From positions 77,249 through 141,248 of the forward strand of contig JAUCBJ010008594.1 of assembly GCA_032718475.1 (NCBI GenBank): DNA of 64,000 bases. The letters are read 5' to 3'. The DNA is from Nemertoderma westbladi (lineage: Eukaryota; Animalia; Xenacoelomorpha). Below the pieces are notes generated by a model. That model made no database searches, had not been told where the DNA came from, and saw only the letters and a program-made list of their open reading frames with translations. Positions within the stretch are counted from its first letter, which is position 1, and each line of letters begins with the position of its first letter. Positions 1-32,521 of the stretch are shown one piece after another. The translations under genes and the position numbers were made by a program.

Positions 1-724
1 TACGCCACGAGAGTAACTAGGGGTTTTATGTATACAAATATGAATAGGCATATTACATTACTGTAACTTAATCAAAATGCGTCGGATTTTCGAAAGTTTT
101 TACGTTAAAGTTAAACTACAAATGCTATCTTATAGTGAAATAATTCATCATTAGGTTTCCGCGAATTGGATTCCATTATTATTCATTGTCTAATGAGACC
201 GAGTCATAGCCAGCGCGCGAACAAAGCGTCTTATGCTATGACTCTAAGTTAAAGAAATATCAGTCAAATAAATATGGGAAACTTTAGTCAGTATGTGTAG
301 TCAGTATGTGTATGTGGAGTCAGTATGTGTAGTTTATGCAGTGTTTGTTATGTGATATGTTACGATGTGAATTGAGTTGAGTTAATAGATATGCGTTCTT
401 ATGACTCTAGCCTCTGATGTTCTTAGGGCAAAGTCTAAAACGTCAGAACTTCAGAATGAATCCAGAATGAAGAAGGATTCTAGGAAAAAAGGTAGCGCAT
501 GCGCCATTTTCCGTAGGCCGCTATTAACAGGGCCGGGGAGATTGCTCTGATTGGCTGAAATATGTCAAACAAAGAAAATTCCACACACAAAGAAACAGCT
601 GGCAGATTTCGTCATCTCAGTCCTGTATTTCCTGACAGACGCGTAGGTGAACAATTCTAAGCCCTTTTTAGAGTATTTAGCGCATTGCGTAAAATGACTT
701 GTTATGTCCGCAAAAGCTTTTACA
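1..724 (-). repeat. Partial 3' LTR of the older, minus-strand BEL/Pao element (runs off the window start)
   Basis: On the minus strand, the tract TCCCATTTTCTGGGAGCGG is followed at 724 by TGTAAAAAGCTTTTGCGGA. This mirrors the PPT/LTR junction of the nested copy at 19111-19148 (TCCCATTTTCTGGGAGCGG-TGTAAAGGCTTTTGCGGA). The rest of this LTR is diverged from the nested LTR. Confidence 0.75.
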
Positions 725-1086
725 CCGCTCCCAGAAAATGGGATTTAAGTCTATAAAATATAAAAAATCACAGTTTCTAATATATAAAAAATACTCTAAA
801 CTATCAGTCCTTCTTTCGCGATCGGCATTTACGAAGTTTTTTGAGACTGGTGAGAGTCTTTTTCTCTTTGGGGCGAGCCACTTTACTAGGAGGGCTATAA
901 CTCCTGGGGGAAGGGTGCCACAATTGCATCAGAAGGGTTTGGATTACGGTCGGTTTATCCGCCGGTCGAGGTACCCGGTTGATCGATGTCGACATCAGTG
1001 GATTGGCAGTGAACAACCTTTAGGGCTCGTTTCAGGACGGCAGCTCGTACTGGTCCTTGATGGGTTGTCTGTACGATAGCGGTAGG

Positions 1087-3808
1087 TTAACCGTGTATAG
1101 TGAAAAATTTCCTCGGTTTATTTGTTCTTTCTAATTCGCATTCACTGGCTTTATATTGATATGGTCTTCTATGAACTTCTTGCAACTCGGGATGTGCGTT
1201 TATGAATAAGTCACTGTATTCAGGAACTTGGCGGATAAAGTTAATCAAGTTATAAGAATCCAAGCTATTGGGGTTGATATTTCTCAGATATTTGCAAACG
1301 TATTTGGTTGAAATGTTCTCACCAACACGTTTCATCAGTTCGTAACTGGGAGTGTGAAATTTTTGTTCAACGGAGGAAAAGAGGTATGGGTGAAACGCAT
1401 AAACTCCTTCATATGCACGTCCTGGATAGTATCTGTGACGTGATTCGCAATGGAGATCCGCATTAGCTTCCCAAGATCTGATGTAGCGCAATGCAACTAT
1501 TTCGTCCGCACTTTCTAGGTCTCGGTTGAAAGGGCAATCGAAACTAGCATGTCCTTTGAATTGGCAGTGGTGACATTGAGTCATAAATTGAGGACAAACA
1601 GTGAAAATATGCTGATTGTTAAGTCCGACAATAAGCACAATAAATTTCCATAGTAGGTTGGTCTTTAAAGTAGGAGCAGGGTTTGTTGGAGTCCACTGGG
1701 GTAAAGTGGTCCCGTGATGCACATAATCAGCAACGTTTCCTAGAAATGTAATTGGCATGCCGATAATCATATGCTGTGAGACATTGTCGACCTTGATACC
1801 ATTCCAACACATAATCATTATCGCAACTCCTGGGCGTTGCAGGTTGGATTTCTTCAGATTCCAAGCAAATTGGTTCTTCTTCAACTTGCATAGCTTCGAT
1901 AGATGTAGCAGTTTTCTCAAGGGAACCCACCGTTTAAACTTCCACAATAGAGTATCCCGTGGGGATTTGGGGTCTTTGTATGACAGATTAATGTAGATTC
2001 TGTATACAAACGTCCTTAAAATTGGCAAATCCAGCGCTATCCAACTTCTCAGCAGCGGAATCTCTCAAGCTGAGTTTGGTCAAAGCGCAGTCTTTAAACT
2101 GACTGTCAACGTTACGGAACGGAGTCAGAAAGCGCCTAAAGCATTCAAATCGGATGAATTTATTGTGTTCATCTAGCTTAGCGAGTTTAGTTCCAAGCAC
2201 TAAGGGATGAGCACGTATAGTTCGACTGCACACATCGGCTAGCCAACCGCTTCTCCAGCTTCTCAAAGATGGTATATATAGCTAATGAGGGACGGAGTGG
2301 AACACTCATAAAGTTATAAACGACTCCAGGTGCTGTTAATGGTCCGTCAAAATATAATCACGAATAATGGTCACCATATATTTGTTGATAACTGACGGGA
2401 TTCCCAACTTTAAAATTCCATCCGTATTCGTGGAACGCCAGATGTCCGATGGAGGTCCTTTGTACTTTGTTGATTCCATTCGGTGTATTGCATACATAGT
2501 CCCATGGTGCAATCAATTGAGTGTCTACGAAAGGATATGGGATATTCTCCATATTTCTAAAGTCATTTTGGAGATCTCCATAAATGGCTGAACCGATCTT
2601 AAATATTCTCTCGTCAAACAGCATCTCGAGGACTGGTTGGGGTAGCATAGATCCATCTATACCCATGGCAGGTTTGCGTTCGGTATTGGTTACATAACAT
2701 TGCACGAGTTCGAATTGTCCATGTCGAAGTTTCTTTTGTATCTCTGTGAGAGTCTCAAAAGAGTAATTGATTGCGTTGGAACAAGCCCGAGTAAAAACAT
2801 GGGTAGAACCAGCTAATCCTCGTATATGTATCATTCTCGTAGTTCCTAGTTCTCCAACAGGAACACTACCTTCGTTATCGTAAGTAACAACTCCGTACAT
2901 TTCGATAATGTTAAGAGTTTCGTTCCACTCTTTGGTGGCTTTTTCTATGGTCATGCCCACCGGATGCCATAATGTCGTGTGGTCGCTGGGGTTAGGTAAA
3001 TCGCGATATTTCAAATAATGCATAGTATGTGTAGCTTCATCTCCATATCTATGTATTCTTTCTTCTTCAAACAATACATCTAGATTCCAATGGACTAATC
3101 GAGTTTTAATAAATCCATCGAGATTATATGGAGGTATTACGTCATTTTCTATTCTTTAAACATTATAAGGTTTTCTAAATGAGTTTACTTTAACCAATTG
3201 ATCTAAGTGTTTTTGTAGTTGTTCGAGTTCAACAATATCGAGGGGATTTATCCAAGGTAGATAGATACCTTAAACTATGTGTAGTATCTTCGGGTTTCAC
3301 CATATAATATTGAGTTAAATGGACATAATAGGGGTGATCTTTGATTCCGTAAAATGAGTTCTGTAAAGGTCTAGCGCGTATGTTAACCTCGTGGACCATA
3401 CGACGGACAAGATCCGCTCGATTGTCCGGAGGTTCAACGAGTATACCGTCGACATGAGCAGCTTCGATTGGCAGACGTTGTAACATAGGAGCATCAGCGA
3501 TAAGATCTCTAGATCTTAAGTTGATATCAACCAGTTGAGGTTGTGCTGTCGCGAAGAGTTTATCTCCGAAATGAGGAACCATCGAAGGATGAGTGATGGT
3601 TTTGGAATAGAGATCAGTCATAAGTATTTGAGCTTCAGGTTGGGCTAAAGCTGCTTCTTCTCTCTCGTCCATTTCGATATGTTTCTCCTCGAGCTGATTC
3701 TCCTCCGCTTGTCTTTGAAAGCGTTCGTCTAAGAACTCTTGTAGCGAATATGTACAAGTTCAATATATTCCTCCAGATTCTTGAATTCACGATCGAACTG
3801 GGGCAAAG
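1087..3808 (-). pseudogene. Degenerate extra ORF (env position) of the older BEL element: DEDDy/RNase D-WRN-EXD-like 3'-5' exonuclease plus CCHC zinc knuckles
   Basis: Co-oriented ORF pieces at 3229-3672, 2358-3074, 1988-2266, 1727-1930 and 1087-2028 are broken by stops and frameshifts. Motifs: ExoI-like GVVTYDNEG, ExoII-like LPQPVLEMLFDERIFKIGSAIYGDL, FVDTQ, SIGHLAFHEYG, and knuckle CHHCQFKGHASFDC. Confidence 0.7.
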
Positions 3809-5015
3809 TGTAAAGGCTTTTGCGGATCTAGCTAGTCATTTTCCCCGCAAAGTACTCTGTAGGTGTTTTAGCGGACATAAAAAGCCGTTTTCTTACTGTG
3901 TAGGTGTTTTAGTGGACATAAAAAGCCATTTTTCTGTATGTGTACTTTAGCGGACATAACAAGCAATTTTATGCCACAATACGCCAAAATACTCTTAATA
4001 CAGTGTAGTTCAGATGACGACATCTATCAGCTGATATGTCGACGTGGAGCTTTTGGCTTTCTTTGTTCAGGCTCACTCACTCGACCAATCAGAGCGATTT
4101 TCATTTTATTTGCACAGAAGCCTCCGGGAAATCGCGCAATGCATTATGGTCTTTGTTTACCTTTTTTCCTGAGCCCAGAACATCGGCTTTGGAATTATTC
4201 TGTGTTTCAGACTTTAGCCAAACATTAGAACGGCTTTGATTATAGAAACGTATAACTGTTATCAAATCAATGCATAATTCACAACAAACCAAATCATACA
4301 CTGCATATCATACTATACATACCTTTCACCGCATTATTTTACTGCTATTTACTGTCGGTTATTAATTGTTATCAGTTGATGGATATGTTGTTATATTTGG
4401 AGAATATCGATAAATAATCATAAAACCCCAATCTTCTTGATATACTGAAGGTTAGAGAGACCGGTTACATATAGCAATTGCGACTTACATTATAGTGGTT
4501 TTGGAGTGAATTGAATGCTATTTCATAGACCCTACATGTGTCAGTTGCTGTTCTCCTTATATATGATTAAAATTAGTGAAGGTCGGCAGATCAGTGTGCA
4601 GCAGTGTGCAGTAGTGTGCATGAGTGTGATAGATAACAAAGCATTTCCTAAAGAATGCGCCTTATACGAAAATCAATAGCCATCCCATTGTGTTTAGTGT
4701 AAGTCATAACTCTGTTTACATACTTAGAGCGCCACGTCCTAAAGGAACTGTTAATATTTCCCGAAAGTAAATAATATTTGTCAGAGATATTATAGTAACG
4801 ATCAATCGAATAGTACAGTAAGCCTACACCGCAATAGGGTCAGAGCATCCGAATCCAGTCTCCCTTAACCGTGGGTGAATGATCGCGCATAGGCTGGCTT
4901 CGGCTAATGTAACTTTATGTGTATCAAATACTTGTTATAGGCTAAAGTCGATTTATAACCTAGAAGACACCTAAATTTGGCAGGTTAAACTGCTAAAGGT
5001 CTAAAAGCGCGAACA
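3809..5015 (+). repeat. 5' LTR
   Basis: TGTAAAGG...GCGCGAACA, a direct repeat of 19130-20336 with about 9 substitutions spotted by eye. Contains three ~42-bp subrepeats (TTTAGCGGACATAA core) at about 3857-3970. Confidence 0.96.
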
Positions 5016-5065
5016 ATAACAGTTATTTCTTTCTTTATTGCAACGAAGGCAATAAAGGCAAAAGT

Positions 5066-5621
5066 CAACTCGCTCACTGAGGTCGCCTACAGCGTTGCTG
5101 TTGAGCCGATGCTCCAGCCGTTATCCGGTGAAACTTTCACCCATCGTACCACCTCGACGGACCAGCAGGCGAGGCTGGATGTGTCTGTGAGCGGCTTCTG
5201 GGGAAACCGATTCCAGCGGTCGTTCATCGACGTGTCCGTGTTTAACCCGCTGGCGGCGATGAACGCGGCTATGTCCCTAGACGCAGCGCACCTCCACCAC
5301 GAGAATCGTAAGATTCTTAAGTACGAGGAGAGGATACGGGAGGTGGAACATTCTACTTTCGTCCCCCTCATATTCTCGGCCTTTGGCGGGATGGCGCCGA
5401 CCACGCGCCAGTTTGTTAAGCGCCTGGGACAGAAGCTCGCAGACAAACGCGAGGTCACGTACTCGGAATGCGTCACGTGGATCCGGCGCAAGTTAAACTT
5501 CGCGTTGCTTCGTTCCTCCCTGCTCTGCCTTCGAGGTTGTAGGTCAGCCTCTAAATGGCCGGTTCATTGTCCAGTGTCTGATGCCTCCATTCGGTTGGAC
5601 AACGCCGACACTGAGCCGTAG
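5066..5621 (+). mobile_element. 3' fragment of a CRE-like non-LTR retrotransposon (restriction-like endonuclease domain)
   Basis: GC-rich ORF end EP..L...ARLDV..GFW....FIDV.V....HE.RK..KY....FVPL.F...GG....FALLR....CLRG.R, the typical PD-(D/E)xK RLE C-terminus; 5'-truncated. Confidence 0.8.
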
Positions 5622-7649
5622 CCTGGTAGTACAGCGCAGTCGTACAGGCCTACAATAGCTGACCAGTAGGCCTACAACATAAACAACCAACTGTTTTGAA
5701 TTTCCCCCTTACATCCGTATCACTGTACCTCATTGTATAAATCAGATTTGGTGATAGGGTGTAATAGTGCAATTTGAAATCCATTGTATCAACTATGTTA
5801 TTATACTATCATTCTCACCTAACCACCCGAACCGGTACTTACAGCAGTACAGGTACATCAGTATTATTCGATTTTGATAATTATATACCGGTAGGTCTTG
5901 ATATTTAATCAGGGACTGCAGCCCTGGTTTTTTATTGGGATTTTACTTATTTCTGTCAGTTTTATTTATCTGTAAGTTAATATTGAGCAGAAAGCGTGTA
6001 AGCCTGCTCAGATTGTATAAATAATTTGTAGGCTGGATTGTTGTCTGGCTGTTGTTAAGTCTGAAGAGATTGCAGTGTGTGTAGAGTGTATGCCCGATAA
6101 AGTACTAGTTAGGAACGTGGGGGCATCCAGTGCTGTAAGGTAAATCCCCCCCGAAAGAATAAGTCGTACTACTCGGTTAGAACGCATACTAACTAACCAT
6201 TTCGGAGTCTGCATATACTGTAGTTTATTTAGGCTTGATAGTAGCCTGCCAGCATTTGGTTTGTATTTCGTTTGTATAGTCTGTACGGGTAGCGTAATAT
6301 TTATTATTCAGAGTATATGCGATTATTCGCAACATTCACAACCCCAAGTTTATTCCTACAGTAATTGTGCTTGTTATACATACCGTTATAGTTAAATTAA
6401 CCCCGGTACTACATCAGGGCTGTTTGGCGTAGGTAAAGACTGGTGATTTTATGCTCTGGTCACTCCGGCAGATACCGTGGTTCTTTTAGCTGTACAAGTA
6501 TTTTTAACTGCTGGTTATTTGTTGTATAAGTACTTGTACCTAATTTAGGGTTTAGTGTACAGTGCTTTCCGAAGGTAATTAGTGTGTAGGCAGTATATTT
6601 GTGTTGTAAAGTGGTTAATAGGCACGTTAGCTATAGTAGGCTGCGGTAATTAACTTCTAGGTAGGAACACTCCGGGTACATAACGTAGTACTTATAGCGC
6701 TACGGCTATAAGTCGTCAGAAGGTGGTATTTTCTTATCTAGACAACGCAATATATTTACTACTGCTTTATTATTTTCAAATACCGTAGTATCCTGTCCGT
6801 TTGTAATAACCAGATATTCTAACTCCTTGTTAGGCTGGTTTGTAGATTTCCTGTAAAATTAACCCTAAAAATTCATACGTGTAATTTTTGTGTTTATTTA
6901 GAGATTGTAATCTCACCCCGTATTGTACGAAATTTGTAGTAATAAGTAACTTAGGCAAGTAGAATTATTTGTTTTAGTGTCCAACAAGTAGCACTTCACT
7001 GAGAGCGTACAGCTTTTGTGTAGTGACTCCTTCCCAGAAATAATAACATTTATTTCAAATATTTAACAAAACCCATTAAACGGGTATATATATTATAAAT
7101 CAACTCAAACCGATTTATAAAATAGTAGGCCTGTCATACAACAATTAGGTCTTAATATCAGTTGGACTACTGCTTAAATAATGGTAATAAAGTAAAGTAA
7201 AGTAACTAAGTAACTCTAAAAATTCGGAAATTCAATTATTCTAAAATAATTGACGTACCGGTATTTACGATAGGCTTATTATATTTATTTCTATAAATTT
7301 AGGCTGAAAATATATACCGGTATTCTGTAATTAATTCTAGTCTATAATTATACTTATGTATACACTATAAGTGTAAGCTGTATACCGGTATTCACGTTAG
7401 GCTTATTATATATCTATATATTTGCGCTGATATTATATACCGGTATTCTGTGACGAACCCTAATAATTCGATCCGTAATAATACTTATATATACTATAAG
7501 TGTATACCGGTATTCTAATATATTGTATATATATCACGTTACATAGAGTGACGATATCGTATTTAATTACTAGGCTAACAGTGATACTGAATTATTAGAC
7601 TTGCTTTAACTGTAATTATAGCAGTAGGCATTCAACTGTACAAACAAAC

Positions 7650-10600
7650 ATGTCTGACACAAAGCAAAACCTGTCAGACAGTCTCCTAGATACAACCATC
7701 TGTGATCCAGATAGGAGTGTGGAACGTTTGAGACCGAAGTTCAACTCACCTCCTACTGTAAGAAAGATCACCCCTCCAGTAGTAGTATCAGACCCTAGGC
7801 TAGTCAAACACCGTAGGTCTATCATAGGCACTCGGGCTCAAGTCAAGCGGGACCAAGAAGCAGCTGTTAAACAGCAGCAACACTCGAGCCGAGAACTTAT
7901 TTCTCAGCGGCCCGATAGCTCCAGTAGTTCAGATACTGTAGAGCTGACACCCGAGCGAGGAGCGATGCGGTTTATTCGGTTCCCCTTCTCATTCTTCCTG
8001 CAGCCGTACTCACTAGGGTATTGATTGCGGTGGAGGAACACCAAATTGATTGGGCGAGAAGTAAGCGATCGACCAAGGACAGTTATACGGGATACACAAG
8101 GGAGGAACTGAAGTCTATTGTCGAGTCGCAATGGAACTTCCCCGGACCTGGACTCCCGTTTAACTTATCGGAAGCTGCCTGGGAAGACTTACACAGGATG
8201 GGAGTGACAAAAGACACTAGTGATCCAGCTGTGTGGAAGAGGTCGGCAGCAGGATATGTACAGAGATTCTTCAGCTCTTTGGAGCGATTAGAGGAACAAC
8301 TGTTTCAACAACCCCAAGGACCTCAAGAGCAGGGAGAGCTGCTTTATCAAGTTCGAGAAAGAATTCTAAGAATCAGACTAATCCTATCGGCCTTTGAGGA
8401 AGCTTCGAAAAGAAGACAAGACACGTCGTTGCAAGTTGCCGTAAAGACTTGGTTTCAGCGGGTGAGTCTCAAGGTTCAAGGAACGGCCCAGTGGAAATTT
8501 CAGCTGGCTGAGCGCTCAACCCACGGAGAATCAACAGACGCTACCTTTTCTCAAGTGGAAAGCGAAGCAACAGCAGAGAAACCGCAGAAGAAGGACGCTA
8601 TTGACATCTATCTGTCAGATTATCAACGATTTCTAGGTGACGAAGAGTTGAGGAGAAGGCTGGCTGGACTTCGTCCTAATAGTGAAGGAGCCAAGTTTGT
8701 GCTGGATGCAATAGATGCGGAAATGTTAGCTGCGAACCAAGCTAAATTTGATGAAAGTAGCCGCATCGCTAGGGTTCAGGAAGGACGCAAGTGAAAGAAA
8801 AAACGTATAGAAGACAGAAAGATAGCAGCAGCGGCAGCGGCAGCGGCAGAAGTTGAAAGAAAAGTGGCAGCGGCAGCGGCAGAGGCAGAGGCTGAAAGAA
8901 AGGCGGCAGAAGCGGAAAGGAAAGCGGCAATGGCAGCGGCAGAAGTGGAAAGGAAAGCGACAATGGCAGCCGCAGAAGCGGAAAGAAAAGAGGCAGAAGC
9001 AGAAAGAAAGGTAGCAGTGGCAGAAGCGGAAAGAAAAGCGGCAGAGGCAGTGGCAGAAGCAGAACGGAGGGCATCTGAAGAGACCACCCAACTAGAGTTA
9101 GAAAATCTTCAAGAGAAGCAAGACTACATAGATAAACAAAGAACAGCTAGTCAGTGGCAGATGATGAGTCGATCTACTCCCAAAAGACAGGGATTTACAT
9201 CATCTGATGAAGGCGATACAACAGATCCTGAAGGTGGAGGAAATAGATCTCGTCTAAGTAGGCGTAGAAGAACGCCCCACCGTCAGAAATTGCCTAATTT
9301 GCCCCCAGCTGTGAGAAGGCAACTAGCTAGCACAGACTTAGGTAGTACAGAACCCACAGACCAAATTATTAGAGTAGAAAGACTCCCTACTATAGTGGAC
9401 GAACCTGAAATAATTAGGCCTGTTCTCGAAGCCACTCCCTCTGTAACAGAGACCACTGTACTTCCAGAACCGAACTATAAATTCCCTTTGTACAGTACTA
9501 AACTACCTGTATCCGGTGGGATAGTTCCTCAGTCAACTCCGGTCCTGGACGCTGAGCGAGTCATTAACAATTTGTCGCCCGTCGTCCCTCATCTGCGTGC
9601 TACTATGTTGGCGGCTCCCGCTTCGGCGGTTGAGTGGGTGGATGAGCGACGGCGGGGGATGGATATTCTCCTCGGGAAGATGGAGGAGAATCAGGCTCGC
9701 TCCTCCCAACAGGTCCGAGAGTTGGAGGGGACTGTTCAACAGTTAAAGGGAACAGTAAGAGAAATTAAGTTAGAATTACAGGAAGTGCAGCAGAGTATCG
9801 CGTTAGAACGCGATAAGTTAGTAAATCTACAAAAGGGTATACCAACACCCCCTGTAACAATGTGTCAACCTGTTAGGTCTGAAGTATTTCATGCGCAAGG
9901 TGTGGAGCCTACACGCATCTATACTGCTAGTGAAGTAGAAACTCCTATAGTAAACCCTATTAAAGGTAATTATAAACCTGTTGACAATGATATTCCATAT
10001 AGACCTGATAATAATCCGAGAAATTTATATACCGATAACTCGATATTAACTAATACGATGGCCCAAGAAAGTTTTACGCGTCAAATGGCTAGAACCGAAG
10101 CCCGTCAAGCGGTAAAGGTGGGAGAGATCGTCAAGTTCAATGGAGATGAGATGAAATGGTAACCTTTTAATGAATATTACAAAGATAACATACAGAACTC
10201 TGTGCTATCTAACGGAGAGAAACTTAGATTCCTCATCGAGTGCTTGGAAGGATCTCCCAAGTTAATGGCGTTAAAGTTTATTGGACATCCAGATGGATTA
10301 AGCCAAGTTTGGAATACCTTAAACATCAGGTATGGTAATAGGAATAACATAGCTAGGTATTTGTATGCAAAATTGGTAGCGCCCCGAAAGTTCATTAGCA
10401 GCGGGATTATAGAGTTTTCCGATGAGATTCAGGAGATCTGTAGACAATTAGATTGGCTAGGTAAGTCTCATGAATATCAGAGTTCTATGGTTATTGGAGC
10501 CGTGGCATCTACTTTGCCAAAGGGTGGAGTAGGTACACGCTGGGATAAGAAAGTGTTATATATGATGGAACAGCAACGACGAGACCCTACCATGGCTGAT

Positions 10601-13600
10601 CTCATGTCATTCTTAGATGGAGAGGTAAAATTACAGCTCCTAAAGCAGTCCAGAGAGAAGACACCGGAAAATAAGGTAAGTGAGAAACCTGTTTCTAGGA
10701 GAAAGGTAACACCAGTGTGTTATACAGACGACGGCGAAAGCCAGGCTTCTCAAGAGGAGGACAGCGGGAAAGACACTGAAAGAGCTTACTATGTCAACAG
10801 ACAGTGCCTAAAGACGTAAGTAAATTTAAGTCTCGAACCAATGACAGGAGAGAACAGGTAAGAAAAACTCCTCCTACGTCTCCTAAGAGAATTCATGGAA
10901 GAAAGCCCGAGGAAAGAACGAGTGTGCACAACGTTACCCAAAGTAAGGTAAGTAACATCAAACCAAAATGTGTGCTGTGCGACGGGCCCCACCGTTTAAG
11001 TGTGTGTGATGAATTCCTGAGGAAATCCCTAATAGATAGACGTGAAGTCATGTGGAATAAGCGGTTGTGTTATAATTGCCTCAGGCAAGGACACCAACGG
11101 CGAACCTGTTACTCCGACGCAAGGTGTGCTAAGTGCGACGCGAAACATCATATCTTGTTGCACACTGAATTCGAAAGAAACAACCAGAGTCAGGTAAGTG
11201 AGTCCGAACTACATGTCCAATTCAGTGATGTGAACGGCACTGACCAAAGTTCTGAGATGGAAGGATTCTATACGGATGAATTCTCCGACGAAAACGAATC
11301 CTGTTACCTAATAAATACCGCAGTGTATCGAGCACTTACGTATGAGAAAGAAACCGATAGTGAGCGCCCCCTAACTACTCCTGACCGACAACCATCTTGG
11401 AAAGCACCAACTTCCAACGTAGGAATCCGAGAATTTCCCGTAGTGCAGTTGAGAGTCCACGGGTCAGAAAAGAGCTATATAGTGAACACCCTACTTGACT
11501 CCGGCAGCACAGGAACATTCATCGACAAAGAACTAGCCGAAGACATCTTTACTGGACAACCCAAGTTCCGAACTAAGTTGAACATGTCAGGAATTATGCA
11601 GGTTTGGAAATCTACAGTAACTACAGACTATTATGTAGGCGCGTTGTCCACCCCCCAGGATGGACTAGGAGAACACAGTATAAGGTCAGTAAAAATGGTG
11701 GCGATAAAGAACTTCGCTACCAGCCAAGTGGAACCTTATAACTGGGATGAGGACGACTTCACCCAGCAGCATAAGATACCTAGATTCAACACAGACTATC
11801 CTGGAGTGCAAATACTCATCGGCCAAAATGCGCATGAGGCGCTTGAGACATTGGAGAAACGGCCTGCTCAACCGCAACCACTACAAACCTATGCGGGAAG
11901 AACTATAGTAGGTTGGTACTTTACTGGACTTTCCCGTAGAACTCTCATGGAAAGGCTACCCAAAGAACGAGTCTACCAGGTGAGTGAATGGGAAGAGGAG
12001 ATCAGTGAGGGAGACGACCCACCTGAGGGAACCCCATACTCCTCAGATAATGACGATATCCACCAACTCTTCGACGAGGAGAATACCATCGTCGACCTCC
12101 TTACGGAAAATGAAACTTGGCAAAACCAAGTGAACCTATGTCACCTCATTCATCCAACGGGGCAAATCGATTACAATGACGAACTGAATGAAGTATAGAT
12201 CGTTACAACGCGAAGACTCGCGATGAACACGCCGTACGATTCTTTACTCAAGAGGCTGTAGAGCCCAATTCCTACGATAAGGCCCTATCGGTAGAAGAAG
12301 AAAGAGCCAAGCAGATACAGGAAACAACTACACGTTTTCTTAAAGATCAAGGTAGATATGAGATTGGTCTGCCTTTCCGACGGCGAGAACCCAATTTTAT
12401 AAACAAAAAACCCTTGGCGGAGAAGATAATTGTGCAACTACATCGACGCCTTACGGCAAATGCTTCAGCTAAGGAGATGTACAAGACCCAGCTGAAGAAA
12501 TTCATTGACTAGGGATATGCGGAGCGAGTACCGGAAGGAACACCCATAACTGAGAGAATGTACTATTTAACACATCATTACGTTCTCAAACCCGGTAAAC
12601 CCAACGAAGTCTGGGTAGTATTTGACGGCTCCGCCCTCTACATGGGCCAATCCCTTAACTCCGAGTTGTTGCCAGGACCCAACTTACTCCAATCCTTGTT
12701 GGGAATACTCTTAAGATTACGACAATATTCAATAGCTTTCGCCTCCGATATAGAAGGCATGTTCTTACAAGTTAAAGCGCTGGATAGAGATCGAGACAGC
12801 CTACGATTTCTGTGGTGGCCTGAAGGAGACCTCAACCAGAAACCGGTGGAGTACTGGATGACCATCCAGGCTTTTGGGATCATCTCGAGTCCTTCAAACG
12901 CCTGCTCAGTGGTGCGTACCACTGCTGATGACAACCGGGACGCCTTCTCCAAAGAGGTTATCGACAACATCAAACGGGATATATACATGGACGACAATTT
13001 AAAGTCCCTCCCATCGGTGGAAGAAGCCATTGATGTCGCCAAAGGAACGGTAGAGTGCTTGAAAAGAAGTGGATTTCGATTAACTAAATTCACCAGCAAC
13101 TCCCGTGAGTTTCTGGAATCGATCCCGGTAGAAGACCGAGGAGTTAAAGATCTAGACCTTATCAAGGACGATCTTCCAGAAACCAAGACACTTGGTTTGA
13201 AATGGGACACGGAGAGAGATATCCTGTTTTTCCAGCTGAAACAGCGAGATAATCCAGTTCGGACTAAACGGATTTGTCTAAGTATCCTGAGCACTTATTT
13301 CGATCCATTGGGATTTATTAGCCCAGTTATATTGATTGCTCGGAGTTTAGTACAACAAATGTGGCTTGAAAACCACTCATGGGACGATCCACTTAAGGGA
13401 AAACTATTAAAGAAATGGATGAAATGGGAAGATTCTCTACCATCCATCGAGAACTTTATAATTTCCCGTTCATATTTTGGTCACATTCTCCCCACGTATT
13501 CCTATCAACTCCATGTGTTTGGAGACGCCAACGATATGGGAATAGGTATAGTAGCCTACCTGAGAGTTGAAACTTCGGATGGAATTAAGGTCGCCTTGGT

Positions 13601-15794
13601 TACCTCTAAGGCCTTGATTAACAAAACAAGTTGAAAGTTCCTCGAGCGGAGTTAAAAGCGGCTCTATACGCTACAGCCATCGGCCGGAATGTAACAGAAC
13701 AGATCGACTATCCACTGGAGAAAACTGTCTATTGGACCGATGCTTTACTCGTGTTGGAATATATAACCAATGAAGTCTGTCAGTTCAGCGTCTTCGTTAC
13801 CAACAGAGTAGCCATTATACTTAGTCGCACGAAGATAGATCAATGGAGACATTGCCCCGGTACGATTAATCCAGCCGATCGCCTCCAGGGGAGCAACTCC
13901 ACAAGAACTGATAGATACTCCAGACTGGTTAGGTGGACCCGACTTCCTAAGCAAGGAAGAGGATGAATGGCCTCCTCATCTTACTACGGCGGAGATTAGA
14001 CAAGCCAAGGGAGCGGAGAAAGTCAAACCTAAAACCCGGGCAAGTAAATCGAAGTTATTTAAACCCGTGATAGATCTGTCTGTACTACACACTTCCGGAG
14101 ACGACGCTTTGGATCCAAAACCCCCAGCCACAAATAAGTCTGTTGTGGAAATCAGAGAGAGAGATTGGAAATCTGGAACACCAGACGTCTCGCAGGGACT
14201 CTCACCCCTCCTACAGAGAGCGATACATCACTATAGCTCCTGGAATCGACTCTGTAAAGCCGTTACATATTTAAAGCGATGTTTTCATCATCACTACTCC
14301 AGGACGAAGACCGCTAGTGATACTGCTCCATTGACATCTGCGCAGGTCCATGTTGTTAAAGATCTTCCCAAATACAAGATATCAGACAGATTTCTGAAGG
14401 AGAAGATCAGTTACCAGGAGCATGAAGAAACCAATAAGCAGATACTGAGACTCCTGCAATGCTATGAGGATTCCGATAAGTATTTCCTGTTGTTGAGAAA
14501 TCCACAGATGCGCTTAAGGGATCGTTTCTCTAGCACAATGATAGATGGGTTGATACGTGTTGGAGGAAGACTAACTAATGCTCCATTATCCTTTGACACT
14601 AAGTTTCCCATACTCATTAGAAATCTTGAAATACAAATCAAGATGATTGTAGATGTTCACAGTAAGCTTTACCATGCTGGTAGAGAACGAGTTCTTAGCG
14701 AAATTCGAACTCGCTATTATTTTCATAAACCCCGTAGAGCTCTGAACCAAGTTCTTAGGAACTGCATACCCTGTAGGAAAGCATTCAGTAGGCTTTTAAC
14801 ACAGCGAGAGGCAGAATTACCTAGGGAACGAGTAAGCTTCTATGAACCACCCTTTACTAATACCGGTGTGGATTTATTTGGCCCTATTGAAGTATATCGT
14901 GCTAGGACTATAGTCAAGAGATGGTGTGTCATCTTTGTCTGTATGACTTGTAGAGCTATCCATCTCGATATGGTGAACGATTTATCTACCAATAGCTTCA
15001 TATTGAGCTTACGCCGACAGATCGCTCGCTTTGGAACTAGTAACACAATGAGATCTGATAAGGGAACGAACTTCATTGGTGCCAACAATGAAATCAAGGC
15101 TTACGTCAAAGATTGGAACCAAAGACAGGTGGACGATCAGCTAAGGGTAACAGCGTCTAGCTGGACCTTCAACGCCGCCGACGCCCCTTGGTGGGGAGGA
15201 AGTTGGGAGAGATTAATCAGGAGCGTGAAGACCGCATTTCACTTTATAGTGCCGTGCCGCGCGTATCTCACCGACGAACTTTTGCAGACGTTAATGGAGG
15301 AAATCGCCGCCTATCTCAACGAGAGACCGCTTATGCTCCCACGATCGGAAATCACAGACGGAGACGAATACTGCCGGCAAACTTGGCAACTTATGCAGTT
15401 GTTATCCCATCGTTTCGCTGACCATTTCGAAAAACATTATCTGCCTACGCTACAACTTCGAACTAAGTGGTTTGCGCAGCAAGAAAAGGTCAGCGCAGGA
15501 GACATGGTCCTTATTGTGAAGTCAGATCTTCCACGTAAGCGGTGGCAGACAGGTCGTATCATCGAGACTCATATCTCGGATGATGGTTTGGTGCGATCGG
15601 TAGAACTCGTCGTCATGCGACGTAACTTTAAGAAACCAGGAATTGTCTTCGAGACACAGCAGCTCAATCGCCCAGTTGGTCGTTTATGTTTACTGGAAAG
15701 AGACAGAAAACTCTCCGGAAACTATGGAAGGCAAGATACTCTTCCCACGACCACCTCCCTAATCCAACAAACATCTAGGGACTCCCCAACGTAA
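7650..15794 (+). pseudogene. BEL/Pao gag-pol polyprotein, disrupted by several frameshifts and stops
   Basis: Gag zinc knuckles CVLCDGPHRLSVC, CYNCLRQGHQRRTC and CAKCDAKHHILLH; protease LLDSGST; RT YMDD; RNase H LHVFGDA, PRAELKAA, YWTDA, NPAD; integrase HHCC, GVDLFGP, SDKGTNF, GGSWERLIRSVK. Split into ORFs starting at 7650, 8021, 8864, 10202, 10804, 12558, 13631 and 14067. Confidence 0.95.
8820..9070 (+). repeat. Coding low-complexity repeat (AEAERKA)n in the Gag N-terminal region
   Basis: Repeated GCAGAAGCGGAAAG-type units translating to an A/E/R/K-rich, helix-like segment. Confidence 0.8.
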
Positions 15795-17500
15795 CAGCGT
15801 CTGGAGTGGGTGTGTGACTATATTATTTTATATTTGTTTTTATTATTTTATATTTATGTATGTATTATTATGTAATTTTATTATAATCGTTTTCTTTAAT
15901 TTTATTTAGTAGAATGTTATTTTAGCGATTATCTAGTAGATTAGTGCAATATATATTAGTCTTATTACTTAATTACTTATATATTATATATTTAGTGCGA
16001 CGGCGAGAAATAATTCTTTTTCTCTTTCCTTACTGTCCGTATCATATTATAAATACGTGACTACAGTAAGATGAAATGTCCGTACTTATTAAAGTACAAT
16101 AAAGCTCCTACTATATTTAAGTATTATTGGTAAGTAGAGTATTAGGAATGCAAAGTTCAGATCCTCGTGTCTCAGCTAAACCAAGCTCTGGGTAGACCTT
16201 GGAAACGACTTGCCTCTTCTCACTGACATTGTTTCTTGCAATATTGCTCTCATACCGTATATTAAATAATACATATAGTAGCGCGATGTCCCTTTAACAG
16301 TAGCATAAAACGCAAAATAAATCTGTGAAACCCTTTGACCATCTGTAATTCTAGTCGATTAAGATATCGTGCGTGGCACCCACCGATATACTTGAAAGAC
16401 AAAATTCTAGAATCAGTGGTTAACGTCCCCAGACATGTTCTGCAATAAACTAGTGCCCATCTTAAATATTAACTATTAATATTTGTAAAATCTGTCAAAT
16501 AGATACAATAGAGTAACTACTTACAAGTTAACTCTAGAAAATCTATAAATTAAAATCTGTAAAATTTTAGATCCTTTAAAATTCTAGTCTACTAAGATAT
16601 CGTAGCACTTACCGATACTCTTAAAAGGACAAATTTCCTAGAATTAAGGACCCTAGTCCCCAGACATGCTCTGGAATAAAATTATGTCTGTTTTAAGGAT
16701 AAATAATAAAATTTACGGGAATAAATTTAAATTCATCTCTTTTAATGAATTTGATAAATTGTCATTTTATACAATTTATAACATTCCCAAAATTCCATTA
16801 ATTAATAGATCATGGGAGCGGAGATTCACCCTATTAAGTGTATTAGTGTGCGAGAATCTCCAATATATAGTCAATAGCCGATAAAATTCATAAGATCATG
16901 TATAAAGGGGATATTGACAATTAAAGAATTACTATTAAATAGCATCCCAGATCTGTATGCATGGGAATTACCCTAATTCTACCGCTAGCTTTCCATAATG
17001 TCACCATAGTAACAACCACGCTAGAATTAGAAGCGAGTTAAAAGAACAATAGAAAGCTTGCCCCAATGAATAGCATAGGGAATAAATAGTACACTGCCAG
17101 TATCCAAGGATACATAATAATAACGTGGCATTCTGGAAGGCACTTGACTAACGGACAAATGGCCCAAATGTGTACAATTTGTAACAGTTGTGTGGAATTT
17201 GTGCGTTTATAGGTGAATGTTACTACTAAAGTGTGTTTACAGTAGCGAGTCGCAATTGTGAAAGTAGCCCTACCTCTGCAGTAAGAACCTGAAGTAAATC
17301 TTAGCCCTTGGGACGGACAGTGGAGTGACTCGCGCTGGTTGTTGTTGTCGTTGTGCAGCTACTATGTTGGCGATAGGCACATCGCGACAGTACATCAGCG
17401 CTGAGGATCTTGCGCTGTCGGGGGGCCGTGAAGGGTAGGCAGCGACGCCCGCTAGCCTAATTATAACTAATTATAATATTGATAAACTCATATAGCAGCT

Positions 17501-19060
17501 ATGACTGAGTTGATATAAGATGATCTTGGTATCAGGGAGCGATATACTCTACCGTTGCAAGCGTTTGTTGATAGCTTAATATGCGGCGACGCTAGTCCAA
17601 CTACTACAGAGGACGATGGTCATTATATCGAACCGCCAATGTCCCAGGAGCAACTCACTCGTGAATTGGACTATCGAAAATTCACTGCTCGCTATACGCA
17701 TCGTAATGGTACGCATATGGACTTCTTAACTACTGGTCATCCTATCGATTTACACGATACGGATGATGTCGACACCGAAAGGGAAATGGTCCTATTTAAA
17801 TATCATACCCAGTGGAGTCGGAACGATAAACTGAGAATCGAATGCGAAAATTCTATTCGAAATCGACTTGAAAGAGAAGACGTTAAAGAACCGGATAAAC
17901 GCAGTGACTCCAACGTATATTTGGAATTCTTGAGAGAAACATTGTAAAACTGAAGAAAGATCACCAGCGTTTCCCCTACAAGACGTGCGTTTTTGGTATT
18001 ATTGCGATGAATGCCCAAGACCCAACCAACAAACGGAAAGACATAAACATCCGCGGAGACGTTGCTCTAAACACAGTTTTACTCGCTATATTTACGGGAG
18101 TTTCGAGCGAAACTTGTTCGATGTATCACCTACGCTCGCTCGATTCAAATGATCCTTAAATAAACCTATGATCAGAGTTCCGGAATACTCGGTCAGACCT
18201 CCTCACTCCCTAGTGAGACCTCAGACTCTTGATCCTAATAGTATCACGGATCCTCCCGAACTGTACTCACTGTTCAAAGATCTAGTGTTACCTGAACAAT
18301 TAGTCGGTGGCACTCCGGTTGTGGGCTCCCTAAATATTCGCCCATCTTACCTAGTCGGATTGGGACGCGGACATCTAATATCGCCATTCAACCGTATCAT
18401 CGTCCCGGTTTAACCCGATACAACCTGTCACCGAGGTGGAGGAGAGAGTTGTACGAAACGCGTTGGACACTATTCGTCAAAAGATTGGAAAAGGAACCTA
18501 CAATTGTTTAGAGAAACGTAAATTGCAGCAGCAAGTCCAAGCGGTAAACGAATTAGCTTTATCTCAGTTCGATCAGGAAATCCAGAATCTCTAAGAAGAT
18601 ATCAAACTTGGACGACTCTACTTTCTGCAAGAGTTTTGGACGAATGCTTTCAACGACAAGCGGAGGAAAATCAGCTCGTGGAGAAGCATATCGATCCCGA
18701 TAGAGCCCTAGAATGCGAGTTGGAAAGAATCATCAAACCGAGGAAATTTCTCACTACACACGGTCCACCTACCGCTCTCGTGCAAACGACCCGTCAGGGA
18801 CCAGTAAGAGCTGCTGTCTTAAAACGCGCTCTCAAGGTTGTTCGACCTCGTTCCACTGAGGTTAATACCGATCAACGGGTACCTCGACCGGTGGATACAC
18901 CGACCGTAATCCTAAACCTTCCGATGCAATTGTATTGCACCCTTCACCCAGGAGTTATAGCCCTCCTAGTAAAGTGGCTCGCCCCAAAGAGAAAAGGACT
19001 CTTGCTAGCCTCAAAAAACTGCATAAACGCCGTCCGCGCAAGAAAGACTAACTGTTTAGA
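17501..19060 (+). pseudogene. Internally deleted extra ORF of the nested BEL element
   Basis: Starts ATGACTGAGTTGATA like the host copy at 20839(-) and has matching peptides (TDPPELYSLFKDLVLPEQLVGGTPVVG; FQRQAEENQL.EKHI; ECELER..KPRKF.T.HG). It jumps near 18693 over the ~2.5-kb exonuclease/knuckle block. Confidence 0.8.
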
Positions 19061-19129
19061 GTATTTTTATATTTTAGAAACTGTGATTTTTTATATTTTA
19101 TAGAATTAAATCCCATTTTCTGGGAGCGG

Positions 19130-20336
19130 TGTAAAGGCTTTTGCGGATCTAGCTAGTCATTTTCCCCGCAAAGTACTCTGTAGGTGTTTTAGCGGACATA
19201 AAAAGCCGTTTTCTTACTGTGTAGGTGTTTTAGTGGACATAAAAAGCCATTTTTCTGTATGTGTACTTTAGCGGACATAACAAGCAATTTTATGCCGCAA
19301 TACGCCAAAATACTCTTAATACAGTGTAGTTCAGATGACGACATCTATCAGCTGATATGTCGACATGGAGCTTTTGGCTTTCTTTGTTCAGGCTCACTCA
19401 CTCGACCAATCAGAGCGATTTTCATTTTATTTGCACAGAAGCCTCCGGGAAATCGCGCAATGCATTATGGTCTTTGTTTACCTTTTTTCCTGAGCCCAGA
19501 ACATCGGCTTTGTAATTATTCTGTGTTTCAGACTTTAGCCAAACATTAGAACGGCTTTGATTATAGAAACGTATAACTGTTATCAAATCAATGCATAATT
19601 CACAACAAACCAAATCATACACTGCATATCATACTATACATACCTTTCACCGCATTATTTTACTGCTATTTACTGTCGGTTATTAATTGTTATCAGTTGA
19701 TGGATATGTTGTTATATTTGGAGAATATCGATAAATAATCATAAAACCCCAATCTTCTTGATATACTGAAGGTTAGAGAGACCGGTTACATATAGCAATT
19801 GCGACTTACATTATAGTGGTTTTGGAGTGAATTGAATGCTATTTCATAGACCCTACATGTGTCAGTTGCTGTTCTCCTTATATATGATTAAAATTAGTGA
19901 AGGTCGGCAGATCAGTGTGCAGCAGTGTGCGGTAGTGTGCATGAGTGTGATAGATAACAAAGCATTTCCTAAAGAATGCGCCTTATACGAAAATCAATAG
20001 CCATCCCGTTGTGTTTAGTGTAAGTCATAACTCTGTTTACATACTTAGAGCGCCATGTCCTAAAGTAACTGTTAATATTTCCCGAAAGTAAATAATATTT
20101 GTCAGAGATATTATAGTAACGATCAATCGAATAGTACAGTAAGCCTACACCGCAATAAGGTCAGAGCATCCAAATCCAGTCTCCCTTAACCGTGGGTGAA
20201 TGATCGCGCATAGGCTGGCTTCGGCTAATGTAACTTTATGTGTATCAAATACTTGTTATAGGCTAAAGTCGATTTATAACCTAGAAGACACCTAAATTTG
20301 GCAGGTTAAACTGCTAAAGGTCTAAAAGCGCGAACA
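19130..20336 (+). repeat. 3' LTR
   Basis: Direct repeat of 3809-5015, preceded by GGGAGCGG and followed by the TSD CAAAG. Confidence 0.96.
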
Positions 20337-20839
20337 CAAAGCTAATTCTTTTACCGCTTGGACTTGTTGTTGCAATTTACGTTTGTCTAAACAATCGTAG
20401 GTTCCTTTTCCGATCTTTTGCCGAATCGCGTCCAGTGCGTTCCTTATAACACTTTCTTCTACCACGGTGACAGGTTGTATCGGAGTCAAACCGGGATGAT
20501 CATACGGGTTGAATGGAGATATTAAATGTCCGCTTCCCAATCCGGCTAGGTAGGATGGGCAAATATCTAAAGTGCCCACAACCGGAGTGCCACCGACTAA
20601 TTGTTCGGGTAACACCAGATCTTTGAACAATGAGTACAACTCAGGAGGATCCGTCATACTATTAGGGTCGAGAGTCTGTGGGCGCCCTGGGGAATGAGGA
20701 GGTCTGGCCGAGTATTCTGTCCATTGTCTTCTGTCGTATATTGACTCGCGTCGCCGCTTATCAAACCATCAACAAACGCTTGTAGCGGTAGAGTATATCG
20801 CTCTCTGATACCAAGATCATCTTCTATCAACTCAGTCAT
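20337..20839 (-). pseudogene. N-terminal part of the older element's extra ORF
   Basis: ORFs 20654-20839 and 20322-20657 match nested-copy peptides at 17501-18560; the sequence resumes at 3808. Confidence 0.8.
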
Positions 20840-22661
20840 AGTTGCTATATGAGTTTATCTAGATTACAACGAATGAGGCTAGCGGGTGTCGCCACCTTCA
20901 ATCCCCCTCTCTGCCCCCGGACAGCCCTGAGGTCCTCAGGGCTGATGTACTGCTGTCGCTGTGCCCCTCGCCAACGCAGTAGCCACACAACGACAACAAT
21001 AACCAGCGCGAGTCACTCTACTGTCCGTCCCAAGAGCTCGAATATACTAGAGGTACTTGATACAGATGTAGGATAACTTTCACAATTGCGGCTCGCTACT
21101 GTAAACATACTTTAGTAGTAACATTCACCTATAAATACACAAATTCCACATTCCTGCCACAATTTGTACAAATTAGAGCCATTTGTCCAGTAGTCAGATG
21201 CCTTCCAGAATGCCACGTTATTATTATGTATTCTTAGATACTATCAAGGCGCTATTTATTACACATGCTATTCAATGGGGTAAGCTCTCTATTGTTCTTT
21301 TAACTCACTTCTAATTCTAGGGTGGTTGTTACTATGGTGACATTATGCAAAGCTAGCGGTAGAATTAGGGTATTTATCATGCATACAGATCTGGGATGCT
21401 ATTTAATAGTGACTCTTGGGTTATTAATATTCCCTTTATATATGATTTTTATTAATTTTGTCGGATATTGTCTGTACACTGGAGATTCTCTCACACTGAT
21501 ATGCTTAATAGGGTGAATCTCCACTCCAATGATCTATTAATTAACGGAATTTTGGGAATGTTAATAAATTGTATAAAATGACAATTTATTTGATTCATGA
21601 GAGGATATGAATTTAAATTTATTCCCGTAAATTTTATTATTTAATATTAAAATAGACACAGTTTTATTCCAGAACATGTCTGGTCATGATCCTTGATTCC
21701 AGAAATTTTGTCTTTTAAGGGTATCGGTAAGTACTACGATATCTTAATCGACTAAAATTTTAGAGGATCTAAGGGTTTAACAGATTTTTATATCAACATT
21801 TGTTATAATAATGTTGTGAATATTTAACAAATAGTTAATATTAGGATGGGCACCGATTTATTCCAGAACATCTCACTGATTCTAGAATTTTGTCTTTCAA
21901 GTATATCGGTGGGTGCCGCGATATCTTAATCGACTAGAATTTCAGAAGGTCAAAGGGTTTAACAGATTTATGGGTCAAAGATTTTAACAGATTTACTTTG
22001 ACAGTGCTACTGTTAAATGGACATCTTTCTTAGTTTTTAGTTTAGTTTAGTTTATTTCGCCACACATGTTAAAATACATAAATACAACAAACAATTATAC
22101 CTGGCATCACTTATAAATACGCTACTGCGTGTTACACGGGATTGTTGCTAAATAATAATAAACACGGGGAATAAAATTATTACACAATTATACAGTAGGT
22201 TTTCCACTGTTTCAAAAATTAATAATTCTACTATATGTATTATTTAAAATACGGTACGAGAGCAATATTGCAAGAAGCAATGTCAGTGAGAAGAGGCAAG
22301 TCATTTCCAAGGTCTACCCAGAGCTTGGTTTAGCCGAGACACGAGGATCTGAACTTTGCATTCCTAATACTCTACTTTACCAATAATACCTAAGTATAGT
22401 AGGAGTGGTATAGATTGTACTTTAATAAATACTGACATTTCATCTTACTGTAGTCACGTATTTATAGTATGATACGGACAGTAAGGAAAGAGAAAACGAT
22501 ATATTATACTAAGTAATTAAGTAATAAAATACGAAATATATTGCACTAATCTACTGAGTAATCGTTTAAAATATTATTCTACTAAATAAAATTAAATAAA
22601 ACGATCACAATAATATAAATTACATAATAATGCGTACATAAATATAAAATAAAACAAATAA

Positions 22662-23107
22662 GATTACAGAAGGCGGGGTAGCTCAGTTGGTTGAGCGCCG
22701 GGCCTACTACTACTACTAGGATCGGCATGCTGCATTGCAGCTGCATTTTTAAGAATGCTGTGCCGGCTTGTCAACAAAATTGCACCGCCACAACTCCCTA
22801 TCACCCATGACATTTGCTAGATCATCCGCATCTTTAAGGCCAGTGTCCTTTAAGATGCGTCTCAAGAAAGTCATGGGCTGTCCACCATGCTCCACCGGGC
22901 CTGCAATCTAATGGTTGTAGGTTCAGCCCCGCCAGGGTCCACTCAGCCTTTCATCCACTGGGGTCGATAAAATGAGTACCAGTTAAATAAATGGGAGCAA
23001 ATCTTGGGATAGGAGTAGCGCCCACCCCTACCCTCGGGTAGCAGCTATCGAAAGAGGAGCCTTCGGGTCGCCTCCGGCTTCGGCCGACTGTTTGCTTTTT
23101 TTTTTTG
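22662..23107 (+). mobile_element. tRNA-derived SINE inserted in the older BEL element
   Basis: Head GGCGGGGTAGCTCAGTTGGTTGAGCG (A box) and degenerate B box GGTTCAGCCCC; central ACTCAGCCTTTCATCC...GGTCGATAAAATGAGTACC block; TSD AAAACAAATAA at 22651-22661 and 23108-23118; absent from the homologous nested-copy site near 15830. Confidence 0.8.
22706..22894 (-). mobile_element. 5'-truncated RTE LINE 3' end inserted in the SINE head
   Basis: Matches 23580-23760; (TAG)n tail on the minus strand; TSD CCGGGCCT at 22698-22705 and 22895-22902. Confidence 0.88.
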
Positions 23108-23982
23108 AAAACAAATAAAATAATAGAGTCACACACCCGCTCCAATCGCTGTTATGTTGTGGAGTCCCTAGATGTTTGTTGGATTAGGGAGGTGGTCGTG
23201 GGAAGAGTCTCTTGTTTTCCGTAGTTGCCGGACAACTCTCGGTCTCTTTCCAATAAACATAAACGACCAACCGGGCGATTAAGTTGTTGAGTTTCAAAAA
23301 CGATTCCAGGTTTCTTGTAGTTAAGTAGCATGACTACGAGTTTCACCGATCTCACTAAACCATCATCGGATATATGAGTCTCGATGATACGACCTGTCTG
23401 CCACCTCTTACGGGGAAGATCTGATTCCACAATGAGGACCATGTCTCCGGCGCTGACATTTTCTTGCTGCACAAACATTAGAGAACGAAGCTTAGACGAG
23501 TTATTATGTTTACGACATAATCGCCATATTATTGACATATTACGACAAATTATGTTTACTTTAGAACACATCAATGACTACTGCTAGGATCGGCATGCTG
23601 CATTGCAGCTGCATTTTTAAGAATGCTGTGCCGGCTTGTCGACAAAATTGCGCCGCCACAACTCCCTATCACCCATGACATTTGCTAGATCATCCGCATC
23701 TTCAAGACCAGTGTCCTTTAAGATGCGTCTCAAGAAAGTCATGGGCTGTCCACCATGCTTATTCACTCCATGAGGCTGCCAAAGTACAAGATTATGCACT
23801 GGCAGGTCCTCACAGCGAAAGCAATGTCCTGCAAAGCGGATGCGATTTTGTTCTAGTGTCAAGCTTGGGGGAACCAATAAGACACCTCCAATGTTATATA
23901 GCGTCTGGTTGGAGATGTGTGCATTGTACTTGACACAATGAACCAGGCGTAGCATCCTTGTGAATGTGCCATCCAGAGATTT

Positions 23983-32424: not shown

Positions 32425-32521
32425 GATATACGAAGGCGCTTTCAGCATGTTGGTTACTTCGGATCCGGAGTTAATTAAGGCCATTTGTATCAAAGAATTC
32501 TCTAAATTTACTAACCGACGG
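32425..32521 (+). CDS. CYP exon 3
   Basis: CAG acceptor; IYEGAFSMLVTSDPELIKAICIKEFSKFTNRR; donor GTGAGT. Confidence 0.92.

Follow-up and report, generated by a model that had tools for sequence, protein, structure and literature searches.

Does a BEL/Pao retrotransposon of Nemertoderma westbladi encode a DEDDy-type exonuclease at the env position, and if so, what would the enzyme act on? The question arises at positions 1087-3808 of a 64,000-nucleotide stretch of DNA that we analysed as a whole (the window). A sequence-only reading had described a BEL/Pao element there, with one long sense ORF between the integrase and the polypurine tract that carries a DEDDy-like exonuclease and zinc knuckles. 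We found that this stretch makes up the 3' part of a BEL/Pao element that is degenerate and lies on the minus strand; we call this element B. It belongs to a multi-copy BEL/Pao family with a long third gene (ORF3) after pol, at the env position. Absent from the sequence-only reading were the insertion of a second element into B, the much larger size of ORF3, an Asp-to-Glu change in the ExoIII motif, and the optional nature of the nuclease block. The features are collected in Table 1.

Table 1. Features of elements A and B in the window, ordered by position.
Feature	Positions	Strand	Remarks
3' LTR of B	1-724	-	TG at 724; continues beyond the window start
Polypurine tract of B	725-734	-	Identical tract in A at 19120-19129
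C-terminal part of ORF3	783-1533	-	True end uncertain, beyond copy-specific stop 1087-1089
Intact zinc knuckle, CX2CX4HX4C	1534-1575	-	zf-CCHC_3 E = 0.0035, below the curated cut-off (Pfam)
Second knuckle, split	1594-1639	-	Frameshift near 1625
First knuckle, degenerate	1691-1732	-	C*LCASRDH; copy-specific stop after first Cys; Asp at fourth ligand position
Linker between nuclease and knuckles	1733-2250	-	Frame of the 1988-2281 ORF; two in-frame stops
ExoIII-like motif, PL-x6-Y-x3-E	2262-2300	-	PLRPSLAIYTIFE; frameshift directly after, at ~2250-2260
In-frame stop within nuclease domain	2358-2360	-	At this codon, essentially all contig depth differs in each of the 4 runs
ExoII motif	2571-2624	-	LPQPVLEMLFDERIFKIGSAIYGD, Asp 2576-2574; FVDTQ next
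ExoI motif, D-x-E (YDNEG)	2871-2894	-	Asp 2879-2877, Glu 2873-2871; end of a hydrophobic strand
ORF3 upstream of nuclease	2949-3808	-	Matches no known family
Target-site duplication of A	3804-3808; second copy 20337-20341	+	5 bp, CAAAG
5' LTR of A	3809-5015	+	TG...CA, 1207 bp; 98.8% identity with 3' LTR
gag-pol of A, broken	7650-15794	+	Knuckles, protease, RT, RNase H, integrase
Spacer between pol and ORF3 of A	15795-17470	+	~1.7 kb, non-coding; even substitutions by codon position
ORF3 of A	17501-19103	+	Without the 2.5-kb nuclease and knuckle block
3' LTR of A	19130-20336	+	TG...CA
Start of B's ORF3	20342-20872	-	Internal deletion of ~550 bp relative to A
Integrase C-terminus of B	23152-23577	-	DUF5641 E = 2.5e-11; 87% identity to A

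The inserted element, A, is a younger sister of B that lies on the plus strand (3809-20336). When we compared the window to itself, a 1.2-kb direct repeat (3808-5032 and 19129-20351, 98.8% identical) identified the LTRs of A. A contains the Pfam domains DUF1759 (E = 2e-8), Peptidase_A17 (E = 4e-28), Integrase_H2C2 (E = 7e-8), and DUF5641 (E = 3e-20). The domains of its Pao-type gag and pol are in the order PR-RT-RH-IN, and it has three BEL-type Gag zinc knuckles (at 10969, 11068, and 11125; span 10969-11160). Three Gag zinc knuckles are a feature of BEL/Pao. Because of these four domains and the three knuckles, we assign A to BEL/Pao. The TG...CA LTRs, the target-site duplication, and the polypurine tract are all complete in A, while B has the tract and the start of the LTR only. 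By eye, we recognised no tRNA-Arg or tRNA-Gly primer-binding site downstream of 5015.

B is found on both flanks of A and is 78-87% identical to it. The only part of B's pol within the window is the DUF5641 tail of the integrase; the remainder lies outside. From this tail, the post-integrase region runs down to 20342, resumes at 3808, and ends with the polypurine tract and the LTR. B's LTR opens TGTAAAAGC, as does A's, and the two LTRs align locally and patchily over ~480 bases. Because A inserted into B, B's integrase is ~19 kb away from the stretch. The BEL/Pao identity was correctly called, as judged by the four domains in A and the DUF5641 tail in B. The location between integrase and polypurine tract is right once the nested element is discounted, but as the DNA now stands, position 3808 adjoins the 5' LTR of A.

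A sits in the opposite orientation within ORF3 of its sister (3804-20341), so antisense RNA against the family is possible. Each LTR of A has, close to its start, three copies of a 41-bp repeat (3853-3970 and 19174-19291), possibly an enhancer array. In A's Gag (8795-9100, plus strand), a long repeat rich in Ala, Glu, Lys, and Arg precedes the capsid domain, and by eye we predict a coiled coil. Just inside A's 5' LTR, the ORF 4989-5621 (plus strand) is similar to another plus-strand ORF at 25790-26521 (24% identity over 164 amino acids, E = 3e-12). Neither has a Pfam match; we take them to resemble the C-terminal restriction-like endonuclease region of non-LTR elements. ORF 4989-5621 could have inserted later or could be cargo that A carries.

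The rest of the window is also rich in repeats. Fragments of non-LTR retrotransposons (22704-25968 on the minus strand, 29405-30099, and 39300-39853; RVT_1 E = 8.5e-19, and DUF6451) include two that interrupt B. A 38-bp satellite array with a strong AT skew extends from 40278 to ~61500 (~554 copies, 94-99% alike), and a 33-bp tandem array at 26703-27190 has 14.8 copies and is open in several frames. A short open frame at 32315-32659 (plus strand) has no Pfam match; part of it resembles a cytochrome P450 exon.

ORF3 extends well beyond the stretch. It starts far upstream, near 17500 in A and near 20870 in B, and continues past B's 1087. From summed lengths, with no built sequence, we estimate that it has roughly 1,250-1,350 codons (~1,300). 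In the longest block of the spacer that precedes it (16892-17384), substitutions between A and B fall 23/23/25 by codon position. The counterpart of the spacer in B (23108-20872) is interrupted by a LINE fragment. In the shared parts of ORF3, third positions account for 14/27, 14/20, and 21/42 of the substitutions between A and B (the last in B's 1160-979), and short blocks near the start of ORF3 and near the junction show no codon-position bias.

In B, the stretch is not the single long sense ORF that had been proposed. Rather, it is part of the ~1,300-codon ORF3, with four changes of frame (near 3760-3790, 3260-3290, 2250-2260, and 1625) and in-frame stops between them. These stops and frameshifts are largely absent from other copies. 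Of the stops, those at 3156-3158, 2358-2360, 1727-1729, and 1087-1089 set this copy apart from the contigs of other copies. Other copies with an indel at 1625 are represented by 2, 3, and 5 contigs in the runs X1-X3, respectively, and the contigs that bridge the frameshift zone at 2250-2260 have an indel there. Remnants of the knuckles occupy the neighbouring frame down to 1625, so the N-terminal 146 amino acids of the 325-residue open frame at 1087-2064 are probably off-frame. We rejected this frame as a whole protein.

Is there a nuclease in ORF3? We built five profiles from 60 bacterial PF01612 loci, 56 of which had a usable frame. The RNase D profile scores the region at 12.6 bits (P = 3.9e-6), none of 1,001 shuffled sequences scores as high, and this region is the profile's top hit among the 624 frames of the window. 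The pooled profile gives 5.8 bits (0/1001 shuffles as high). The WRN-like bacterial profile fits more poorly than RNase D and is not significant (1.3 bits, 8/1001 shuffles as high). The short RNase D-like profile is not significant either (-2.5 bits, 244/1001), and the PolA profile gives no score. Among NCBIfam models, RNase D (rnd) matches over ExoII with E = 0.006. hhalign gives E = 1.6e-4 (probability 50) and E = 1.4e-3 (probability 17). In the ESM Atlas, the best match is to PF01612 at 0.92, and all 10 of the best family-bearing matches share the family or clan, with a shared-feature count of 152-158, which is below the 170 that is typical of true family matches.

Standard searches with the nuclease piece gave nothing. 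There was no Pfam match at the curated cut-off, including to PF01612, and no match in a sequence search of the PDB. Among 1.84 billion representative proteins, there were 0 matches at E = 0.001. Three word-seeded searches (with the near, longer, and upstream pieces) found no match, and neither these nor the protein searches identified a eukaryotic homologue. Pattern matches in metagenome and viral contigs were confirmed in 0 of 81 and 0 of 14 cases, respectively. A phage search found no match, and in PHROGs the only matches were of unknown function, at E = 0.05 or worse.

A single-sequence AlphaFold model has a pLDDT of just 31, and its fold search returned unrelated proteins. An alignment-guided model reaches 56.5 overall, and 81-91 over ExoII, and its fold search retrieves NrnC, RNase D, WRN, and EXD2 (best E = 3e-3). 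Because the input alignment contained DEDDy proteins, the guided model and its DEDDy fold matches are circular.

The motifs bear on the question in another way. We scored ExoI, ExoII, and ExoIII in order, using matrices from 38 family members that were aligned without the query, although the blocks and spacing were picked after seeing the query. The region scores 37.2, as compared to 9.5 ± 5.0 for shuffled sequences (maximum 28.3, with 0/500 as high) and at most 17.2 for 27 windows of gag and pol. This is far below the family members, which score at least 63.6, but are themselves in the matrices. Taken singly, only ExoII is significant (0/500 shuffles as high, versus 21/500 for ExoI and 198/500 for ExoIII). 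For each of the three motifs, the best site in the query is at the expected place. In a MAFFT alignment with trimmed references, D24, E26, D125, Y225, and E229 fall on the catalytic columns of the family; with untrimmed references, ExoI is misplaced.

The D-x-E (YDNEG), the ExoII segment, and FVDTQ that the sequence-only reading had noticed are present, on the minus strand. Its ExoIII, "PLRPSLAIYHL", is a mix of frames. The nuclease frame reads PLRPSLAIYTIFE, and we rejected "YHL" as ExoIII. Instead, the window's own frame has Y-x3-E, where DEDDy enzymes have Y-x3-D (Asp), so we class the domain as a DEDDy-like variant and not as a canonical member. The ExoI D-x-E, the ExoII Asp, and the ExoIII Tyr occur in the same order as in cellular DEDDy proteins (RNase D/Rrp6, WRN/EXD2, EXD1, and Mut-7/Nibbler). 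In contrast to these, the domain has Glu in ExoIII and two long insertions relative to the family (~40 and 33 amino acids), and it is just 11-21% identical to the 38 bacterial members. The K-x-G form of ExoII resembles WRN-like sequences, while the D-T-Q strand that follows it resembles RNase D. Given these mixed features, we did not assign the domain to a DEDDy subfamily.

Each of the profile and search signals is weak, but they agree with each other on the DEDDy family. The region very probably has a DEDDy-type fold, if a remote one, as judged by the profiles and the ordered motifs. The sequence-only reading had proposed such a domain and had staked it on a profile match to DnaQ-like exonucleases. 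Weak matches of this kind came from NCBIfam RNase D, our own profile, and the ESM Atlas; Pfam PF01612 gave none. Alternatively, ORF3 might contain a real domain that is not DEDDy, with coincidental motifs. The blank standard searches, the low hhalign probabilities, and the choice of blocks and spacing after the query was seen could all be explained this way. However, several methods of different kinds agree on one family, and three motifs are in the correct order, so we consider this alternative improbable.

If the fold is DEDDy, is the enzyme active? The Glu in place of Asp in ExoIII, the absence of small residues after the Tyr, and the extreme divergence might indicate a pseudo-nuclease with weak or dead catalysis. 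ORF3 would then be an RNA-binding scaffold or decoy, like EXD1 and Maelstrom, which PMC5408684, in its available text, gives as inactive derivatives of the DEDD fold. On the other hand, carboxylates are still present at all four positions and the Tyr is kept. At the Tyr and Glu codons, the variants in other copies, among those listed, are at silent positions only. Also, the bdelloid ORFs, in the same part of that source, vary the motif too (DEED). We consider a pseudo-nuclease unlikely, and we favour an exonuclease that would use Glu as the fourth carboxylate.

The product would then be a divergent DEDDy-type 3'-5' exonuclease joined to zinc knuckles. One intact and two broken knuckles had been reported, and all three are where they were expected (Table 1); the ESM Atlas gave no usable match for the knuckle-bearing tail. 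We saw no membrane segment either, in agreement with the sequence-only reading: across nine single-frame pieces, the highest 19-residue Kyte-Doolittle mean is 1.38. With no membrane segment, we rejected the idea that the gene at the env position is an envelope gene.

The knuckles would bind single-stranded RNA. They are of the retroviral CCHC type and, like those of BEL Gag, form a series of three, which raises the possibility that an active exonuclease is packaged via these nucleocapsid-like knuckles and helps with replication by trimming the element's own RNA, the tRNA primer, or cDNA ends. Such a role is proposed in the available portions of PMC5408684 and, for Dada DNA transposons, of PMC3706591. 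But gag and pol suffice for most BEL/Pao elements (PMC8742986), and ORF3 is a gene separate from gag-pol. Overall, we think a replication helper is rather unlikely, and we continue with an exonuclease that acts on other RNAs.

To learn about other copies, we turned to public sequencing data. Three public DNA runs from two studies contain 0.32-0.45 of the sampled words from the window, and the window itself may derive from one of them. Across four runs (from at most three samples), 7113, 5123, 3106, and 155 contigs matched, and all 30 bins were covered. This is clearly a large family, including the nuclease region.

Variation among the copies has a coding pattern. The variants come from short Logan contigs, and those given for 2361-3155 are among the top 40 of 830 variants. 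In the nuclease frame, 14 of 16 variants in 2262-2337 are at third positions (P = 1e-5), as are 10 of 15 in 2361-3155 among the variants listed (P = 0.009). Beyond the break, in the frame of the 1988-2281 ORF, 5 of 6 variants in 2200-2219 are at third positions; these counts exclude seven variable places in the frameshift zone (2250-2259). The third-position excess across copies implies that the region was under selection as a protein and that coding continues across the break. This bears on another explanation, that the region is a captured fragment of a host gene that rides along neutrally. The death of this copy and the many deletion derivatives would be expected of such a passenger. However, the third-position excess, the in-frame fusion within ORF3, and the lack of a close cellular homologue have already largely refuted it, and we consider it very improbable.

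The nuclease seems to be optional. A lacks the 2.5-kb block with the nuclease and the knuckles (B's 3674-1150), with the joint at 18694|18700. The frame is preserved across A's joint, within a 193-residue open frame (18522-19103). The same 1150-3674 joint is found in one contig each from X2 and X3 (depth 1960 and 763, which is not copy number), with only 26 letters on the short side, which calls for caution. Other contigs have deletion joints from 951, 954, or 964 to 3663 or 3672. A lacks the block and yet has LTRs that are 98.8% identical and an intact target-site duplication; A's loss could postdate its insertion. Because A lacks the block and the contigs contain both shared and differing joints, an element can probably do without its own nuclease and knuckles in cis, and it seems that several lineages with deletions have spread. 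We also considered that the block was inserted recently into an ancestor that resembled A. This is unlikely because several different lower breakpoints (951/954/964/1150) join to 3663-3674.

Dispensability in cis fits with a product that acts in trans, but does not indicate its target. Similarly, the copies without the block do not discriminate against a replication helper, because they could be complemented in trans.

What might the ORF3 product do? Given the 1.7-kb non-coding gap after pol, we suspect that ORF3 is expressed from a separate RNA, probably a subgenomic one. The exonuclease would trim the 3' ends of RNAs, and since nuclease-less copies seem to have multiplied, it would do so in trans. 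We rank host silencing RNAs as its target ahead of a dead scaffold and a replication helper; the available text of PMC5408684 names both the processing of RNA 3' ends and a role related to silencing as possibilities for such ORFs. The whole chain, in which an enzyme acting in trans trims or destroys the 3' ends of RNAs, most probably those of host silencing RNAs, is a tentative proposal, as is the RNA-processing or anti-silencing role put forward in the sequence-only reading. A stronger version is that this BEL/Pao lineage independently evolved a silencing suppressor of ~1,300 amino acids, with an active D-E-D-E exonuclease, three knuckles, and a swappable in-frame block, which full copies supply in trans and on which nuclease-less copies free-ride. 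We think this is quite unlikely to hold in full.

Juno and Vesta, two LTR retrotransposons of bdelloids, are on the Ty3/gypsy side. They contain DEDDy ORF3s, which are common to the Athena/Terminon retroelements (PMC5408684), and the bdelloid precedent given in the sequence-only reading holds. As far as the available text of PMC5408684 shows, the likeness is considerable: a third ORF that follows pol and occupies the env position, with an RNase D-like DEDDy domain, an altered catalytic tetrad, no membrane or env features, and a putative function. That text does not mention BEL/Pao. The carrier here is BEL/Pao, and the tetrad is D-E-D-E instead of DEED. Also, the domain here is in a ~1,300-amino-acid protein with three knuckles and makes up an optional in-frame block, and no link to the rotifer sequences emerged.

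Dada elements also carry a DEDDy domain, but these are DNA transposons, with the domain inside the transposase and each of the four DEDD residues intact (available text of PMC3706591).

Compared to the Belpaoviridae/Semotivirus profile (PMC8742986), our family is typical in having LTRs of up to 1.2 kb, a gag-pol with PR-RT-RH-IN, a polypurine tract, and an optional third gene. It differs in that the third gene is not env-like; the profile gives only gag, pol, and env. A is 16.5 kb, or ~19 kb with the block, versus 4.2-10 kb in the profile (PMC8742986). Size alone is not unprecedented, because the maxima of de la Chaux and Wagner include Flow at 16 kb and Sinbad at 21 kb (PMC3118150, supplement 9, in its available part).

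In the literature we searched, we found no exonuclease third gene in BEL/Pao, although Repbase Reports, subscription journals, the Terminon paper, and most supplements may hold a precedent. The available parts of PMC6431247, PMC5718144, PMC12440569, PMC7998251, and PMC3118150 include no such case, and the main text of PMC3118150, where available, never mentions an exonuclease. Exonuclease third genes were already known; what is new here is that the carrier is BEL/Pao, that the tetrad is D-E-D-E, that the ORF is very long, and that the block is optional.

These results extend exonuclease third genes, as published for bdelloid LTR elements, to BEL/Pao, with a sequence that is too divergent for routine annotation. 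Recruitment of the same class of enzyme to the env position, repeatedly and in unrelated lineages, suggests a general benefit that is still unexplained. Because a single genome contains copies with the block and copies without it, it offers a natural comparison for asking whether suppressors of small-RNA silencing are encoded by animal retrotransposons. If ORF3 does encode a silencing suppressor, the transposon would be countering the animal piRNA pathway with an enzyme of its own, and in our searches we found no such case reported for this superfamily.
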